IMG/VR virus record: IMGVR_UViG_3300030097_000522
Span: 1-36,600 of that record
Strand: one strand, 5' to 3'
From: a virus
Taxonomy: Duplodnaviria > Caudoviricetes
Length of the DNA stretch: 36,600 bases
The notes under the pieces were generated by a model. It saw nothing but the letters and a program-made list of their open reading frames with translations, searched no databases and was not told the DNA's origin. Both the position numbers and the translations under genes were made by a program. Below, in pieces: positions 6,227-22,854 of the stretch. The stretch's first letter is position 1. The number at the start of each line of letters is the position of its first letter.

Positions 6227-6262
6227 ATGGGAAGACCCGCTGATTTTTGCGGGTTTTCCCAT
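6227..6262 (+). terminator. Hairpin after the lysis cassette, also part of the attP left arm
   Basis: ATGGGAAGACCCGC / GCGGGTTTTCCCAT 14-bp stem with one G-U pair. Confidence 0.5.
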
Positions 6263-6304
6263 GATGTATTTTGCAAGTTGTTGATATTGTTGAGGTTCGC
6301 GGCA

Positions 6305-6350
6305 ACTCTTAATCAGCGGGTCCACGGTTCGAGCCCGTGCGCGCCCACCA
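6305..6350 (+). other. attP core: 3' half of tRNA-Lys(CTT)
   Basis: Anticodon loop CTCTTAA, TCAGC, T-arm CACGG-TTCGAGC-CCGTG and acceptor strand ending CCA; 5' half absent; IHF-like boxes at 6274-6286 (minus strand TATCAACAACTTG) and 6355-6367. Confidence 0.9.
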
Positions 6351-6382
6351 TTCATTTCAACGGCTTAGCCGTTTTGTCATGA

Positions 6383-6397
6383 GAACATGAGGCGAAC
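6383..6397 (+). promoter_or_regulatory. Alphaproteobacterial LexA (SOS) box
   Basis: GAAC-ATGAGGC-GAAC matches GAAC-N7-GAAC. Confidence 0.55.
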
Positions 6398-6437
6398 GTG
6401 AGACGGTTTTATACCGTCTCACGTCTCATGTGAGACG
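6397..6437. repeat. Putative integrase arm-type sites, four TGAGACG copies arranged as two inverted pairs
   Basis: Copies at 6399(+), 6415(-), 6422(-) and 6431(+); 11-bp IR CGTGAGACGGT/ACCGTCTCACG. Confidence 0.7.
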
Positions 6438-6834: not shown

Positions 6835-7542
6835 TCAGACCTTCGGCTTCAAGCGCCGGGTATTGTAGATTGGTTTCTCGTGCCAGATCGCGCGGCGTTC
6901 CTCATCGAGGGCGGCGCGCATGGTCTTGAACGGAACAACCTCTTCCTGCGCGATCTCTTTTCCGAACGCTGATGTGGAGCGGTGCTGGTATCTCCGGCTG
7001 CGATATTTCTGGGTGCAGCCGATCCAAAGAAGCCGACCGTCCGCATCGAACAAGCGATAGACGCACGGCCCGTCCGGCCATTTTCGCCGAGGCTTTTTCG
7101 GTAGGGGTGCTTCCAGAACATCATCCGGCTCGACATGCCCGCGCGAAACTCTCACATGATGGCGGTTCTGCATTTGCCCGACAAGCAAGGATTGCCGCGA
7201 TATCTCGCTGTCGCCGGAGACCTCTTTGCCGTCCACAAGTAGCTTGACGCCCTTGCTGATGACCGAAGCCATGAACCATCTGGCGTCGGTCGCTGACAGG
7301 CCAAGGCAGAACGTGCTGTGGACGTGTATGGTATCGCCGGGCTGCGCTGCCCCTATCACGTCGTTCCGCGCTTCAAGCTGGTGCTGTGGCCGAGTTGATC
7401 CACGCTTTACATAGTCGCGCCACACAGGCCCGAACTGGCCGGTGTTGATCCCTGCGCTGGCCATGAATGCAAGTTGCTTGCGCTCAGACGGTCGCCCCGG
7501 TGCAGCGAGAATGTAGCCCCAGTTTACAGACTGGACGCCCAT
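6835..7542 (-). CDS. Inactive serine-resolvase-like domain fused to a GIY-YIG nuclease domain
   Basis: N-terminal WGY...Q...AG...PGDTIHV...LG.S...KGV resolvase pattern; C-terminal VYRLFDADGRLLWIGCT...RRYQH...EERRAI...PIYN. Confidence 0.7.
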   Translation of the reverse strand: MGVQSVNWGYILAAPGRPSERKQLAFMASAGINTGQFGPVWRDYVKRGSTRPQHQLEARNDVIGAAQPGDTIHVHSTFCLGLSATDARWFMASVISKGVKLLVDGKEVSGDSEISRQSLLVGQMQNRHHVRVSRGHVEPDDVLEAPLPKKPRRKWPDGPCVYRLFDADGRLLWIGCTQKYRSRRYQHRSTSAFGKEIAQEEVVPFKTMRAALDEERRAIWHEKPIYNTRRLKPKV

Positions 7543-9164: not shown

Positions 9165-9329
9165 TCATTTCCCTGTTTTAAGGCCAGCTGCCGATGTTTC
9201 TCGCCAAGAGCTGCTGCGAACGCGGCATTTGCATCGCTCGCAGATGAAGCCGTTGCGGTCAACAGTCGTTGTTTCCAAGTCGAAATGATGGCCGAAGTAA
9301 CGGCAGATCAATTTAAGCAGTTTCTTCAT
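9165..9329 (-). CDS. Small DUF1660-like phage protein
   Basis: LICRYFGHHF...CERC; ATGA overlap with the integrase stop. Confidence 0.6.
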   Translation of the reverse strand: MKKLLKLICRYFGHHFDLETTTVDRNGFICERCKCRVRSSSWRETSAAGLKTGK

Positions 9330-10612
9330 TTGTCTAGCGCCCATGCCGACAGCTTGGCGATCGCGGAGCGCGCCAGCTCCGGGTGCATGCCGAGGTAATG
9401 TTTCAGCACGTCCTGAATTGTCTTGAGCGAATGCCCGGTGATCGAGGCGATTTCGGCAATATCGCAGCCGGCCAGCGCAAGCCATGTCACGGCCGTGTCG
9501 CGCAGATCCTGATCGTGGAAATCGGCAAGCGTGGCGACGGGCTCGAAGCCGTCAAGCGCTGCCGTCAGGTCAAGGCCGCGCGTGATCGATCGGGCGACCT
9601 GGCCGAGCTTGCCATCTGCCGGCAGCACGCCGGTGCTGGCCACTGTGGCCACAATGCGAAACAGCTTGCGATACCAATCGGCTTGAAAAGGGCGTTTAGC
9701 GCGCTCGTCGAGCACAATCTCGGGATAATTGACGCGCCAGTCCTTGCGGCGCAGGCGGGCGGCATCGAGCCGCGCAGCAAGGTCCGCGCTCACAGGGATC
9801 AACAGCGGCTGGCCGTGCTTTTTCTGCTGCCGGAACAGGATGGCATCATCGACGATCTGGCCGCCGGCAAGCGAAAGCCTGTCAGCCTGGCGCTGTCCCG
9901 TCCAGACACCAAGCAACACCGCGTCGCCGATCTCCGGAAGGCCGAGCCGATCGGCCGCATCGACCAGGGCGGCGATCTCGTGCCGTTCGGCATAGCGAAT
10001 GCGCGGCGCAGGCACCGGCAGCTGCTGACCGATGACCGGGTTTGCCGACAGGCCGAGCCGCTTCTGGCCAAACTTCCATGCGACGGACAGAAGCGCGCGC
10101 ACCGAGCGCGTGGTGGCGAGCCCATGCTTTTGCTCGATCTTGTCAAGCACGCCTTCCAGAGCTGCCGGGCTGATAGCGGCCGCCGGCGAATGCCAGATCA
10201 GCCCGTCATCAAGGTTCTCGAGAACGCGGGAAGCGTTGTTGTATTGCCGGATAGTATGCGGCGAGCAGGCGGCGCGGCTCTTGCGTCCGCGGCTGACTGC
10301 CTTGCCCTGATAGTGATCCTGTTCCAGACAGCGGCTCACCATGATCGAGACGGTGACAACATCGGCAGAAAAGCGCGGCCGGGCCTTGTGATCCGCCACC
10401 GCCTTGGCGCGGGTTTCGCGCATCGCTTCGATTTCCGCCATGCGCCGAGCGGACCAGGCGATGCATTCATCAAGCGTGAACCATGCCCCGTCCGGCCCAT
10501 GGCGCAGATCCTCGCCCTTGAAGCCAAGCTTGCGCTGTGCCGCCGACGCGAAGAAGCGCGGCCGGCCATCGCGCCAGGTGACAAGCGGGATCTTGACGGT
10601 GATGGTGCCCAT
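9326..10612 (-). CDS. int: Tyrosine integrase
   Basis: TGQR (R), QKK (K), QDLRDTAVT, ITGHS, KHY; start re-assigned to ATG 10612 (GAGG RBS). Confidence 0.93.
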   Translation of the reverse strand: MGTITVKIPLVTWRDGRPRFFASAAQRKLGFKGEDLRHGPDGAWFTLDECIAWSARRMAEIEAMRETRAKAVADHKARPRFSADVVTVSIMVSRCLEQDHYQGKAVSRGRKSRAACSPHTIRQYNNASRVLENLDDGLIWHSPAAAISPAALEGVLDKIEQKHGLATTRSVRALLSVAWKFGQKRLGLSANPVIGQQLPVPAPRIRYAERHEIAALVDAADRLGLPEIGDAVLLGVWTGQRQADRLSLAGGQIVDDAILFRQQKKHGQPLLIPVSADLAARLDAARLRRKDWRVNYPEIVLDERAKRPFQADWYRKLFRIVATVASTGVLPADGKLGQVARSITRGLDLTAALDGFEPVATLADFHDQDLRDTAVTWLALAGCDIAEIASITGHSLKTIQDVLKHYLGMHPELARSAIAKLSAWALDK

Positions 10613-10736
10613 CGGTTTTGCCTCACGTGGCGCACCGCTCGCTTTGCTCGCTGCCGCTCCGGCAGGGCGCGAAACGGTTCGCGTCGGCCGGTCGGCCTTG
10701 CGGCCTACGGCCGGGGCGGATGCTTCAAAGGACTGG

Positions 10737-10765
10737 AGCATGGCGAGGTTCCTTGCGGTTGTCAA
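10737..10765 (-). promoter_or_regulatory. Putative integrase promoter
   Basis: TTGACA-N17-CATGCT. Confidence 0.6.
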
Positions 10766-15990: not shown

Positions 15991-17066
15991 GCGGCAAATT
16001 CACGATTGCCAAGGAACGGATCATCGACGATCTCGACGAGATCCTGTCCGAATTGTTCGACGCAAAGATGAAAGACCGCAAGGGCTCAAGCTGGTTCGTG
16101 GTCAACCCGTTCCGGCCCGGCGCCAAGGCCGGCCAGATGGCCGTTAGGATCAAAGGGCCGGCACGCGGTCAGTTCATCGATTTTGTTTCCGGCGAGAAGG
16201 GCGATGCGATCCAGCTTGTGGCCTATGGGCTGGAAGGCTCGACAGGCCGCGAGGCGCAGGCGCGCGCGGTGGAATGGGCCTTCGACAGGTTCGGGCTAGG
16301 CACGATCGACCATGGCCAGCGCGAACGCATTGCCGCCGAGGCAAGGGCGCGCCGATCGGCGGCCGAGGCGCAGGCAGAGCGAGATCTCGACGCCGCGCGG
16401 GAGCGGGCGCGCAAGACGTTTTTTTCCGCATCCGAAGGGATCCGCGGGACGCCGGTTGAAACCTATCTGGAGAGCCGCGGGATCCGGCTTGCTAAGCTGC
16501 CGGCGCTGCCGCCGGCCTTCCGGTACATGCCGCAGGCGGAATACTGGATGGACCCGGCGCGGCCGCGGTTCCCGGCGCTGATTTCGGCCATGGTGGACGG
16601 TACCGGCAGGCTTTGCGCCTGCCATTGGACATTTATCCGGCCGGACGGCAGCGGCAAGGCCGATGTCGAAAAGGCAAAGCTGATGTACCCGGCGACGAAT
16701 GGCCTTGTGATCCGGATCGCCAACGGGGCCGGCGGGCTTTCCCCGGAAAAGGCGGCCGAGGCAAAGCAGCCGGGATTGTGCGCGCTTCTGGAAGGGATCG
16801 AAGACGGGTTGAGCCTGGCCATGGAAAGGCACGACTTGCGGATCTGGGCGGCGGGATCGCTGCCGAGCCTTCTGACCGTGCCGGACCATGCGGCCGTCAG
16901 CGGCTGGCTTGGTTTCAAGGATAATGATTGGGGCAAGCCGCAGGCGGCGGCGCTTTACGAGCGCGCCATGAAGCGGCTCCGGCTCACACGCAAACCGGTG
17001 GCGACGATCGCCATTCCGGCCGATTGGGGAAAGGACATAAACGATGCAATCAACAGCCAGCAGTGA
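15987..17066 (+). CDS. DNA primase (Toprim)
   Basis: YLESRGI, HWTF, EGIEDGLS and DND motifs; ATGA start. Confidence 0.85.
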   Translation: MSGKFTIAKERIIDDLDEILSELFDAKMKDRKGSSWFVVNPFRPGAKAGQMAVRIKGPARGQFIDFVSGEKGDAIQLVAYGLEGSTGREAQARAVEWAFDRFGLGTIDHGQRERIAAEARARRSAAEAQAERDLDAARERARKTFFSASEGIRGTPVETYLESRGIRLAKLPALPPAFRYMPQAEYWMDPARPRFPALISAMVDGTGRLCACHWTFIRPDGSGKADVEKAKLMYPATNGLVIRIANGAGGLSPEKAAEAKQPGLCALLEGIEDGLSLAMERHDLRIWAAGSLPSLLTVPDHAAVSGWLGFKDNDWGKPQAAALYERAMKRLRLTRKPVATIAIPADWGKDINDAINSQQ

Positions 17067-17073
17067 GACAGCC

Positions 17074-17745
17074 GTGAACGCGGCGGAACTGACAGCCGAC
17101 GAGATCCTGATCTTGCGAGATACCGACGAGGTGGCCAGCGCGGTGGCGCACCTTGCCGCCGCGCGGCTCTATGCGCTGATGACGAGTGACGCGGAAGAAC
17201 CAGGCGTCGATTTCGGATGGTTCGATCGTCTCGGAGAGTTCGCGAACATGCCGGACGCTCCGGAGGAACAGAAAGCGCGGCATCAGCAGGTGCAACAGCG
17301 GATATTTCGTCTTGCCGCCTATGTGCGCGGCAGAGATCTGCAGTCGACCGAGACGCTCTATCGCCACGATGGTGGCAGGGACTGGCCGAACGAGACCGAA
17401 CCTTACCGGCAGGCGCTTGAGGTTTTCCGCCTGACCGCGCTTTCCGTGGCTTCAGGGATGGAGACGAGGCGCGCCGCCCTTGCCGACATCGAGCGGCAGG
17501 AGATCGCCAAGAAACAGGCCAAGCCGCTGAAACTGGAAGACAGCATTTTCGAGCCCGAGGACAAAATGGGCGACCTGCTGCCGCATGCGGTTCAGGCCGA
17601 CCAAGACGCCGCCAAGGCGAGGCGCAAGGCAGAGCAGGAGACAGAGGCAGAGACGCCGGCGGCTATGTCTGTCGGCGAGCCGCCTGCAGGGCACCAGAAG
17701 GCCAAGACGCAGCGAAAAACGCAGAAGCCGAAAAAATCAAACTGA
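17074..17745 (+). CDS. Hypothetical protein in the replication module
   Basis: Fills the primase-helicase gap; start codon uncertain. Confidence 0.65.
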   Translation: MNAAELTADEILILRDTDEVASAVAHLAAARLYALMTSDAEEPGVDFGWFDRLGEFANMPDAPEEQKARHQQVQQRIFRLAAYVRGRDLQSTETLYRHDGGRDWPNETEPYRQALEVFRLTALSVASGMETRRAALADIERQEIAKKQAKPLKLEDSIFEPEDKMGDLLPHAVQADQDAAKARRKAEQETEAETPAAMSVGEPPAGHQKAKTQRKTQKPKKSN

Positions 17746-19890: not shown

Positions 19891-20161
19891 CGATTAGACA
19901 GCAAAGACAGTTGGAATTTTCGCTGTCTAATCGATCGAGCCTCGCAAGGTGTTGATATCATTCCGATTTCGGCAGCGGCAGACACTCTAGACAGATTAGA
20001 CAGCAAATCGGGCCTCATATGTATGCACACACGCGCACACATAAACAAACAACTGTCTAATCTGTCTAGAGTGTCTTTTAATAAGGTAAATGGTTGAAAT
20101 GGTTGATTTTTTCAAAAGACAATCGCCAAGACACCCGCAAGACACTTCCCGCTTGCTGTCT
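19891..20161. repeat. Putative replication origin with AGACA iterons in inverted repeats
   Basis: 24-bp perfect IR at 19980-20003/20053-20076; 12-bp IR at 19891-19902/19922-19933; AT-rich; IHF-like box; directly after the helicase. Confidence 0.7.
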
Positions 20162-20186: not shown

Positions 20187-20789
20187 ATGGCTGATGATCC
20201 GGACCTGTTTGAGGATGGTTCAGGGGATTGGGATTGGCACGCCGATGCGGCGGCCGCGCGGGCCGGGCAGCGCGGGATCCGCAACAAGATGCGGAAGCGC
20301 AAGGGCCTTGAGCCGGAGCCCGAGGGCGACCAGGGCGAGGAAAAGCGCGGGCCGGGACGCCCGAAGGGATCGCCGAACCGCAAATCGGTCGCGTTCGAGA
20401 AGCTTTACGCTGCCAAGGGCTTCAAGGATCCGCTGATGGTCATGGGGCAATTCATCACCATGAGCCCGCTGGAGCTTCAAGCCTGGCTGATCGAGAACGA
20501 AATGGCCGAGGTCCAGAGCGGCAAGACCAGGCAGCCGGCGCTGGCGCAGCTGATCGAGATCATCAAGGAACAGCACAAGGTCGCCAGCGACCTGGCGCCG
20601 TACCTGCACGGCAAGAAGCCGACCGAGATCCAGATCATAGACGAGCGGCTGCCGCAGCTGATCATCGACCTGGGCACGGATCAGCTGACCGAAGCGCGCG
20701 CGATTGCGGCCGGCAAGGCGCTTTCAGCCGGATCGCCTATTGAGGAAGCCGAGTACAGCGAAATCAAGGACTTAGAGGGCGAGGAATGA
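20187..20789 (+). CDS. terS: Terminase small subunit (putative)
   Basis: GRPKGSPNRKS motif and LAPYLHGK; upstream of terL. Confidence 0.65.
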   Translation: MADDPDLFEDGSGDWDWHADAAAARAGQRGIRNKMRKRKGLEPEPEGDQGEEKRGPGRPKGSPNRKSVAFEKLYAAKGFKDPLMVMGQFITMSPLELQAWLIENEMAEVQSGKTRQPALAQLIEIIKEQHKVASDLAPYLHGKKPTEIQIIDERLPQLIIDLGTDQLTEARAIAAGKALSAGSPIEEAEYSEIKDLEGEE

Positions 20790-21146
20790 TTGCGTCTCAC
20801 GTTGCAGCGTCTCACGGCGCAGGAAAGCCAAGCGATTTCAAAGGCATCAGGCATGCGGCAGCGATGATTGAAAATCAGCGGGTCCAAGGTCGCGGGGCGA
20901 TCGGGTGGATGGCAGGCGCGCGGCCCGTATCGCCGGCAGGGGGGCGCGCGATCGCGCGCGGCCATGGCCGGCGGGGGCCTTCCCCGAAGCCGGCCCCCCG
21001 CCTCCCCATAGGGGGCAGCGCACGCACACCGATGCTGTTTTCAGCCCGGCAGGCTTCGGAGAGAGCCGCTTGTGCGCGAACTCCCGTGGCCGGCCCGAGG
21101 GTCGGGGGTGCGGGTATGCCTGCACACGCGCTTTTCCCGTCTCATG
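20762..21146 (+). other. Second att-like site (IHF box, arm motifs, core half-site)
   Basis: AATCAAGGACTTA at 20762; GCGTCTCACG at 20792 and 20807; AATCAGCGGGTCCA at 20873-20886, identical to 6311-6324; CGTCTCATG at 21138. Confidence 0.65.
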
Positions 21147-21172
21147 AAGGGGTCGGGGGCGCGAGGCCATGA
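20786..21172 (+). CDS. Possible linker ORF between terS and terL
   Basis: ATGA overlaps with both the terS stop and the terL start; low-complexity product. Confidence 0.3.
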   Translation: MIASHVAASHGAGKPSDFKGIRHAAAMIENQRVQGRGAIGWMAGARPVSPAGGRAIARGHGRRGPSPKPAPRLPIGGSARTPMLFSARQASERAACARTPVAGPRVGGAGMPAHALFPSHEGVGGARP

Positions 21173-22854
21173 ACAAGCCGGTCAACGTTACCAAGGAAGA
21201 TTTCGAGCTGATCGACGAGCAGCGCATCCGCGAACTGGCGCACAAGTACGAGATCGAGGAAGATTTCGATATCTACCGCTATGTGCCGCCGGGACCGGTG
21301 GCGCTGGGCTATATCCGCCTGCTTGCCGGCTCGTCGTTCATCATGGGGCCGGTGGGCTCCGGCAAGACCACCGCGTCGGCGTTCAAGCGCATTCATGCCG
21401 CCAGCGCAGCGCCGGTGGCCTGGCACCCCGAGGACCGCAAGCCCACGCGCATGTGCCGCTGGATCGTGTTGCGCGACAGCTTCCGATCGGCCGAAAAGAC
21501 CGTGCTGGAAAGCTGGAAACAATGGTTCCCGAAAGGCTATCCCGGTTCGAGCTGGGCCGGCGGCAATGATCGCCCGGTAACGCACATATTGCGGTTTCGC
21601 GGGCAGGACGGCGTGCGCGTCGAGGCGATCACCGAGTTTGCCGGCCTGGGCGAGAACTCGATCGAGACGCTGATGAAGGGCCGCGAATATTCCGGCGGCT
21701 GGCTCAACGAGTTCGACACCCATGCCGAGGGCGCGCTCGAAGACATGGAGCAGCGCGTCGGCCGTTACCCGATGGCCGACAGCCTGCTGACAGTCAGGGA
21801 ACTTGAGGAACTTTCGCGCGAGCTGGGCCACGTGATCCAGTCCGGACAGCGCAAGGCGCTGGTGATCGGTGACCTCAATGCCCCGACACTCGACAATCAC
21901 GCCTACAAGACCCTTGTGACGAACATCCACAAGACACCGGACCGGGCATTCTTCCGCCAGCCGTCCGGCCTGTCCGAAGAGGCCGAAAACCGCCACAAGC
22001 TGGAGCCCGATTATTACGATCGGCTGGTTCGCAACCAGGATCCCAGCTTCGTGATGCGGATGGTCGAAAACAAGTTCGGCTATTCGCGATCGGGCAAGCC
22101 TGTCTATGAGGGGTTCGAACGAAGCCGGCACGTCGCGCCGCGCGAAATCGGGTTCGATCCAAAGCTCGAACTGATCATCGCCATCGACGTGTCGATGAAC
22201 ACGCTCAATCCGGCCGCCACCTTCCTGCAGGTGAAGGCGCCGGGCCGCATCGCGGTGATCGACGAGCTCTATCTTGGCCACGGCGTTGGCGCCGCGCGCT
22301 TCGGCGAGGCGCTGAAACAGCGGATCGATGAGCGCTATGCGGATGCGATCAAGATCCGCGTGTTTGCCGACCCGGCCGCGCAGTATGGCGCAGACAAGGA
22401 AGGCGGCCAGCTGACCGCGCTGGAGACGATCGCGATCATCCTGGGCCTGCCGCTGTTGATCCCGGCCGGCGGCTCCAACGAGCTGGGCGGGCGGCTCGAT
22501 GCGGTCAAGGCAGAATTGCGCGGATACCTTGAGCCGAACACGCACTTGATCATCTGCCCGGTCCGCTGCCCCTTCCTGATCGAAGGGTTCGAAGGCAAAT
22601 ACCGGTACAAGCGCAGGCCCGAGCGATCATCCGCCGAGTACGAGGACGCGCCGGAGAAAAGCCATCCCCATTCCGACATTCACGACAGCCTGCAATATGG
22701 CGTGCAGGGCGTGCGCGGCCGTGTAGGCTCATTGCGAAACGCCGCCGGCGCCGATCGGGCGCCCGGAAGCGGCAGCAAATCATCTGGCTGGGGCGGCAAG
22801 AGCGGCAAGGCGGGAAGCGGGGGGTTCGACGTTCACCGCGTCGGGCGCAAATGA
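21169..22854 (+). CDS. terL: Terminase large subunit
   Basis: GPVGSGKTT Walker A, WLNE Walker B, DLNAP coupling motif, nuclease IAID...SDIHDSLQY. Confidence 0.9.
   Translation: MNKPVNVTKEDFELIDEQRIRELAHKYEIEEDFDIYRYVPPGPVALGYIRLLAGSSFIMGPVGSGKTTASAFKRIHAASAAPVAWHPEDRKPTRMCRWIVLRDSFRSAEKTVLESWKQWFPKGYPGSSWAGGNDRPVTHILRFRGQDGVRVEAITEFAGLGENSIETLMKGREYSGGWLNEFDTHAEGALEDMEQRVGRYPMADSLLTVRELEELSRELGHVIQSGQRKALVIGDLNAPTLDNHAYKTLVTNIHKTPDRAFFRQPSGLSEEAENRHKLEPDYYDRLVRNQDPSFVMRMVENKFGYSRSGKPVYEGFERSRHVAPREIGFDPKLELIIAIDVSMNTLNPAATFLQVKAPGRIAVIDELYLGHGVGAARFGEALKQRIDERYADAIKIRVFADPAAQYGADKEGGQLTALETIAIILGLPLLIPAGGSNELGGRLDAVKAELRGYLEPNTHLIICPVRCPFLIEGFEGKYRYKRRPERSSAEYEDAPEKSHPHSDIHDSLQYGVQGVRGRVGSLRNAAGADRAPGSGSKSSGWGGKSGKAGSGGFDVHRVGRK

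Follow-up and report, generated by a model that had tools for sequence, protein, structure and literature searches.

Phages of a widespread, uncultured family of temperate, podophage-type phages of alphaproteobacteria carry, besides the attachment site at a tRNA gene, a second att-like site for their integrase (Int) close to the terminase genes. Judging from its sequence make-up and conservation this is almost certainly a real, selected Int site, and in its arm and core motifs it follows the attachment site of the same phage. Recombination of the site with another copy of itself, in whatever setting, is its probable function. We see about an even chance that the setting is terminally redundant virion DNA, in which Int would recombine two copies of the site and so circularise the genome after infection.

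The window, by which we mean the whole stretch of 36,600 nucleotides analysed (IMG/VR record IMGVR_UViG_3300030097_000522), is a complete circular phage record of 36.5 kb with a 99-nt overlap of its ends, listed in IMG/VR with direct terminal repeats. Contigs of this phage are present in marine metagenome runs. Podovirus genes for the head-tail connector, for capsid and tail and for internal virion proteins are present, and besides terL (Table 1) the genome encodes a single tyrosine integrase, a repressor, a Toprim primase and a member of the primase/helicase family. The gene before terL was labelled putative terS by its position; its product has no Pfam match and its only PHROG match is to a family of unknown function. 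Among known folds the terminases of D6E, T4 and Sf6 came nearest to the predicted fold of TerL, ahead of HK97 and T7, although these matches are weak (TM 0.2-0.34 on a model with pLDDT 66) and the fold was rejected as a decisive pointer to packaging type. An origin-like region at 19895-20069 contains TAGACAG iterons, which occur in either orientation, and an inverted repeat of 24 bp without mismatch; the same iterons are carried by G056, a 15.5-kb provirus record. A 235-aa ORF (6835-7542, minus strand) that none of the other 47 records analysed has matches an endonuclease in its C-terminal part, and its N-terminal part resembles a resolvase by eye. The 233-aa ORF between primase and helicase (17044-17745) gave no family, Atlas or fold match.

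The single Int of the window is of the lambda type. Among PDB sequences lambda Int alone was matched, and full-length lambda Int was also the best fold match of the Int model, in which a small N-terminal domain of strand and helix is attached by a flexible linker. From this model, the N-terminal domain would bind the arm sites. The attP site contains the 3' half of tRNA-Lys(CTT), starting from the anticodon loop, and complete prophages among the relatives are flanked by the same tRNA half. In the X1 and X2 runs another contig, at a depth of about 750-1005, carries this tRNA-Lys 3' half (window 6305-6350) between other flanking sequences; the sample hence contains another abundant element or host that uses this target.

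Table 1. Features of the attachment region and of the terS-terL region in the window.
Feature	Position	Strand	Remarks
attP	6256..6437	+	short arm site 6256-6263; IHF box 6274-6286; spacer CTCTTAA 6306-6312
attP, rest		+	tRNA-Lys(CTT) 3' half to 6350; IHF box 6355-6367; arm cluster 6398-6437
Int	9326..10765	-	lambda-type tyrosine integrase with separate N-terminal domain; phrog_1
putative terS	20187..20789	+	label by position
IHF box 1	20762..20774	+	consensus match; inside last codons of terS
bridging frame	20786..21172	+	128 codons; ATGA overlaps with terS stop and terL start
arm-type site 1, CGTCTCACG	20793..20801	+	motif as in attP arms
arm-type site 2, CGTCTCACG	20808..20816	+	15 bp after site 1
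IHF box 2, degenerate	20829..20848		between arms and core
core	20861..20886	+	left half GCGATGA; spacer TTGAAAA (20868-20874); right half TCAGCGGGTCCA
conserved GC-rich block	20974..21045	+	cTtcCCcgaa...gGGG...CACCGAT...TTT; anchored by regex
lone CGTCTCAT	21138..21145	+	probably outside the site
terL	21169..22854	+	phrog_2

An earlier note on this DNA had reported that a stretch between terS and terL repeats the attP core, and this repeat was reproduced in full: positions 20873-20890 equal 6311-6328 at 17 of 18 nt, in direct orientation and at an offset of 14,562. The arm-type repeats shared with attP, the consensus IHF box before the core and the different 7-bp spacers of the two sites were recovered as well. 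The motif CGTCTCAY occurs seven times in the genome, four times at attP and three times in the terS-terL interval, against a chance mean of 2.4; seven or more copies arose in 2 of 100 shuffles. With up to three mismatches, the core pattern is found at only two places in the window genome (chance mean 0.06). The bare repeat is less special, since this genome has 12 pairs of 18-mers, the repeat among them, that differ at no more than one position, and the case for a second site therefore rests on the relatives.

The relatives were gathered by terL and Int searches from IMG/VR records and 18 GTDB loci, the latter from Martelella, Stappia, Rhizobium, Labrenzia, Roseibium, Phyllobacterium, Pseudovibrio, Cohaesibacter and other hosts. 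In total, 48 records were analysed, the window and 47 others; they include six identical IMG/VR-GTDB pairs and comprise 37 non-redundant sequences. Short fragments such as L003, L009, L018 and L021 and the GTDB loci L107 and L112 were excluded from the counts. Of the 14 virus records selected by Int, 11 have terL, and the three others have distant Ints. The closest terL among 50,697 records was 31.6% identical, none of them being a cultured close relative. In one relative (G047) the packaging module includes a tRNA-Met gene, located in the gap that follows terL.

The same layout follows terS in all 48 records, down to about 30% terL identity: an IHF box, two arm sites, a second IHF box and an inverted core around a 7-bp spacer. 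The seed of a core matrix came from 25 of these 48 records; the matrix scored at least 15 bits at 250-1120 nt upstream of terL in 46 of the 48, and the site ranked first in its own record in 39; the better matches were mostly the att site itself. In G043 the core scores 7, yet arms and IHF box are there, and the site of G037, missed by the matrix and seen by eye, has a perfect GCGTCA-N7-TGACGC core. IHF box 1 has 0-1 mismatch in 40 of 48 records, compared with 0.3% of control windows; for IHF box 2 the corresponding count is 43 of 48, at 0-2 mismatches on either strand and with a control absent for two strands. Across the 37 non-redundant sites the core positions A/T-N5-A/TCA (slashes at the spacer boundaries) are 92-100% kept, and the arm-distal half is the most conserved part of the site. 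Only 3 of 28 records have an arm 7-mer of the own phage to the right of the core. Thus, the make-up given in the earlier note held for the two arms and the IHF box, whereas the motif at 21138 is not conserved and probably lies outside the site.

When 2.9 million viral contigs were scanned with the motifs alone, 51 matches were obtained, 34 of which had a terL of the family 208-788 nt downstream; the second arm, which the pattern did not demand, was present in 33 of these 34. The other 17 matches belong to one unrelated sequence family (L182 and 16 near-identical loci on short viral contigs, with an IHF box and CGGA-N7-TCAC). Looser patterns mostly returned chance matches, 27 of 71 and 11 of 74 being linked to the family. 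The second site combines what is expected of a lambda-type att site, namely inverted half-sites around a 7-bp overlap, arm-type sites shared with attP, an IHF box between arm and core, and a cognate two-domain Int.

The arm windows of the site share on average 10.2 7-mer positions with the att arm of the same phage and 2.05 with those of other phages (n = 26), compared with 1.3 and 1.07, respectively, in a downstream control window. Likewise, the right half of the core agrees with the tRNA half-site of its own phage at 7.14 of 8 positions and with those of others at 6.41 (n = 22). Values of this size were reached in 0 of 100,000 permutations in either comparison, and the co-variation with attP among relatives with other tRNA targets, which the earlier note had named as a check, was hence found. 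The own att gave the row maximum in only 12 of 26 arm rows, because motif classes are shared among phages. By a 5-mer test the arms agreed in 21 of 25 records; in the four exceptions (G025, G027, G032 and G050) no arm 5-mer of the site occurs twice in the own att arms. A clear mismatch is seen in G027, with TCACA-type arms at the site and beyond the right att and TCTCA-type arms at attL. Both G027 and G033 have a second long-arm cluster beyond attR, with another arm motif in G027; such extra clusters were likely left by a tandem prophage, or by an earlier one, at that tRNA.

Since the permutation tests ignore relatedness, sister pairs weigh more. On a terL tree (quick method, 42 rows), G029/G031, G038/G040 and G010/G039/G028/G005 switch the arm motif together with att. 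The phages G013 and G030 have terL genes that are 98.7% identical and Ints that are 68% identical, and they use tRNA-Lys and tRNA-Thr, respectively. Their sites differ at 17 of 37 core positions, the flanks at only 5 of 75 and 9 of 148, and the differences, mainly in the core and the adjoining IHF box, go in each phage toward its own tRNA stem. In the distant MT835534 (terL 29%; tRNA-Gly att read by eye), the core of the site, CAGC-N7-GCTG, is that of its own att, and its own arm motif and the GC block are present as well, all upstream of terS. For the arm motifs of BiPBO1, G053, G054 and G055 no second arm cluster was found in these genomes; the motifs used for Psul1 and EBPR podovirus 2 occur too often to allow a judgement. 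That the site is a product of chance or, as the earlier note had considered, a relic of the fusion of a satellite with a morphogenesis module is barely credible. The bare repeat would allow it, but the site is kept down to distant relatives, and the concerted change of its arm and core motifs with Int specificity refutes the relic.

The spacer behaves differently. It has 1-5 mismatches to the phage's own attB loop in 30 of 30 records, occurs in 24 variants in 37 sites and does not track the own loop (3.79 for own against 3.85 for other loops). The window spacer TTGAAAA equals the loop of a tRNA-Phe, but 24 different spacers make the likeness a coincidence. Lambda-type exchange requires identity over 7 bp, according to the available part of PMC1807965. 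A partner with the same spacer and half-sites was found in none of the 48 records, and none was consistent in 8 host genomes, a solitary state that the site shares with loxP-type sites. Because the spacer matches neither the attB loop nor any other site in the genome, the partner that remains would, on sequence grounds, be another copy of the site itself.

Use of the site as an alternative attP for a second chromosomal target is highly improbable. It has the arm, IHF and core elements for this, and the 13-mer TGATCAAAAATCA has one and three extra copies in two of three host genomes, but the third has none, and in five other host genomes every extra match has another spacer. Moreover, in each of the 16 records that have both att ends, the phage is integrated via the tRNA att and its second site lies intact inside, and integration at the site would part terS from terL.

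The two sites had further been taken to bracket a 14.6-kb satellite-like module able to excise alone. Recombination of the site with attL or attP despite the mismatch, be it for a satellite-like life or for gating of late genes in the manner of helper-embedded PICIs, is very improbable. Some tyrosine integrases tolerate mismatched overlaps, records with a forward att have the geometry for excision and the site resembles a short att arm. Relative to the site, however, the att cassette is forward in 19 of 30 records and inverted in 11; along the terL tree its orientation changed four times or more. The site and att would hence excise in some phages and invert in others, and the module reading fails; excision alone is further contradicted by the spacer mismatches. 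In the 11 records the whole attP cassette is inverted with respect to int and the rest of the genome. The junction of 20873 to 6311 that excision predicts was absent from the contigs of four runs, and site-att junctions gave 0 matches in two collection scans, which ran without a positive control. Two single contigs of 36,513 bp (depth 247 and 141) each represent one circle, although contigs drop rare forms. The G056 record continues past the intact core and ends about 110 nt to its right; it is a broken contig and not a module-only form. The gene set resembles that of PICIs and helper-embedded PICIs, with int, repressor, primase, helicase, ori and terS in about 15 kb beside late genes (available parts of PMC6092414 and PMC10111431). 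Unlike in these elements, as described there, one Int serves the whole phage and no matching att pair surrounds the module. Orientation also varies, and neither a module-only form nor a life apart with its own integrase was found; site and module are no PICI.

To the right of the core, about 110-200 nt from the spacer, lies the GC-rich block, for which a regex anchors in 36 of 49 sequences, one of them wrongly. Its position suggests that it is likely a packaging or terminase signal, and we take its layout to resemble lambda cosQ-cosN. The site travels with this block and not with the terS-terL gap, because in MT835534 both lie upstream of terS. Genome ends were not seen in the contigs, and several candidate indications of such ends and of packaging type were discounted. 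In the X3 run the top non-tRNA depth bin (20272-20935) stood at 6.3 and the others at 1.4-4.7, but similar depths occur in terL at finer scale and contigs hide ends. Among metagenome contigs of the family, 4 of 9 right-hand ends are within 200 nt of the spacer and 10 of 10 left-hand ends are more than 400 nt away, a pattern that GC-rich assembly breaks explain equally, as the provirus record G056 is broken about 110 nt right of the core too. All 82 Burkholderia phages, including vB_E332 (terL 29%), are given as permuted in PMC12860723, calls too blanket to serve as a guide.

Searches for RecT, ERF, Rad52, AAA_24, YqaJ and Enc34-type families found none in 28 family records and MT835534, whereas each of the positive controls EBPR podovirus 2, BiPBO1 and BcepC6B had one of the six annealase/exonuclease families. 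The RecT profile missed the annotated RecT of BiPBO1, which AAA_24 caught, so divergent annealases can escape such a search.

Circularisation of virion DNA is favoured because the motifs track att, the spacer is unmatched, no partner was found, the site has a fixed place left of the GC block and no annealase was detected. In this mechanism, Int and IHF would assemble on the site as on lambda attL, engaging the core, the IHF bend and two arm sites. Terminase would cut in or near the GC block, and packaging would put the site at both ends, either by a headful that starts with the site or through a short direct repeat. Int made from the incoming linear DNA would join the two copies, while the private spacer would block reactions with attP, attB, attL and attR, whose outcome would be the deletion or inversion of 12-17 kb. 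A single Int would then work in two orthogonal channels split only by the spacer, attP with the tRNA and an end-borne site that pairs with itself, a proposal that to us stands evenly balanced. As part of it, and with equal chances of being right or wrong, the self-pairing site would replace a phage annealase in circularising, possibly concatemerising, the genome. Against circularisation, the site would stay unduplicated if packaging ran rightward from the GC block or if the block were a cos site, and host RecA could circularise a long redundancy.

Self-recombination may instead take place between replicating circles, turning monomers into concatemers for packaging or resolving dimers before integration. 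The evidence for self-pairing (co-variation, unmatched spacer, no partner) is identical in this case, and an iteron-type origin with primase-helicase replication and the empty annealase search would suit it. Such a role, however, needs no fixed place by the putative packaging signal, and this place is kept even in MT835534; we consider it quite unlikely.

Between the terS stop and the terL start a frame is open in 37 of 48 records (26 of 37 non-redundant ones), where shuffling leads one to expect a fraction of 0.068 and the other five frames of the interval give 0-0.19. Exact RTGA overlaps at both ends are present in 15 records. The peptide varies in sequence and is not conserved, and a real protein was rejected, as one DNA motif is read in three frames. 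The frame likely keeps translational coupling between terS and terL across the cis elements; in the circularisation mechanism it would couple terL translation to terS across the site. It fits any reading of the site, and a gating function thereby stays alive. In this alternative, an Int-IHF complex gates the packaging signal or the terS-terL operon by binding only, without strand exchange, and late functions would be tied to the Int state. It predicts equal co-variation and a free spacer, the former reflecting recognition rather than catalysis; the site lies inside a translated operon and adjoins the GC block, and IHF could also serve terminase. On the other hand, both half-sites and the exact 7-bp spacing are kept, the best conserved half is the one away from the arms, and lineages with other cores (G037, L021) retain long inverted repeats around 7 bp. 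A gate on terS-terL in particular agrees poorly with a site tied to the GC block. Binding alone is unlikely, though it keeps appreciable weight.

The job proposed for the second site in circularisation has a counterpart in the role that loxP plays in the cycle of P1. P1 DNA is packaged by the headful from pac (PMC11769102, available part), and after infection a linear DNA that bears two lox sites becomes circular (PMC2841073, available part). In both systems, as far as these portions go, a tyrosine recombinase would join identical sites on headful-packaged linear DNA and identical spacers are needed (PMC2841073, PMC11769102). Cre is, however, a dedicated enzyme with an arm-less 34-bp site and an 8-bp spacer, as stated in the accessible text of PMC8116776. 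The second site instead has arm and IHF elements and a 7-bp spacer and is read by the integrating Int; a dedicated, arm-less recombinase working without a host factor is not what is seen here. If our reading is right, the site works like loxP and is built like lambda attL, yet it is no member of the Cre-lox class. Recombination of lambda attL with attL exists as a laboratory pathway, the 'bent-L' reaction, for which we know of no biological role. At lambda attL, IHF bound to H' enables Int to bridge C'-P'1 and B-P'2, and the order core-H'-P'1-P'2 has its parallel here in a core, an IHF box and tandem arms at similar spacing, served by a lambda-type Int (PMC4880445, available part). Unlike attL, the second site does not arise by integration but is permanent, internal and genome-encoded; its spacer is private, and it has one further, distal IHF box.

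The family shares the order of connector portal, capsid, tail and internal virion genes with BPP-1/BcepC6B-like podoviruses (terL 28% to BcepC6B). BcepC6B differs in having genes for a DNA polymerase, for an exonuclease and for an ssDNA-binding protein of the Enc34 type, and in its genome, where its own att was unplaced, the second site was undetected. In the literature searched, mostly without subscription papers, there was no description of such a site, nor of a conserved Int-IHF element of any role at a packaging locus; the available part of PMC5537653 holds nothing on such a site.

Integrases are usually taken as enzymes of lysogeny. A co-evolving second site with its own spacer would mean that one enzyme combines the tasks of lambda Int and P1 Cre, and this reading would offer an answer to how a temperate podophage without an annealase circularises its genome. 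If true, the attL × attL pathway gains a natural function and Int would be essential for lytic growth across the family. The natural arm and core variants, each paired with an Int sequence, make up a dataset on recombinase specificity, and named lysogens in Stappia, Martelella, Labrenzia, Roseibium and Phyllobacterium make the reading testable.
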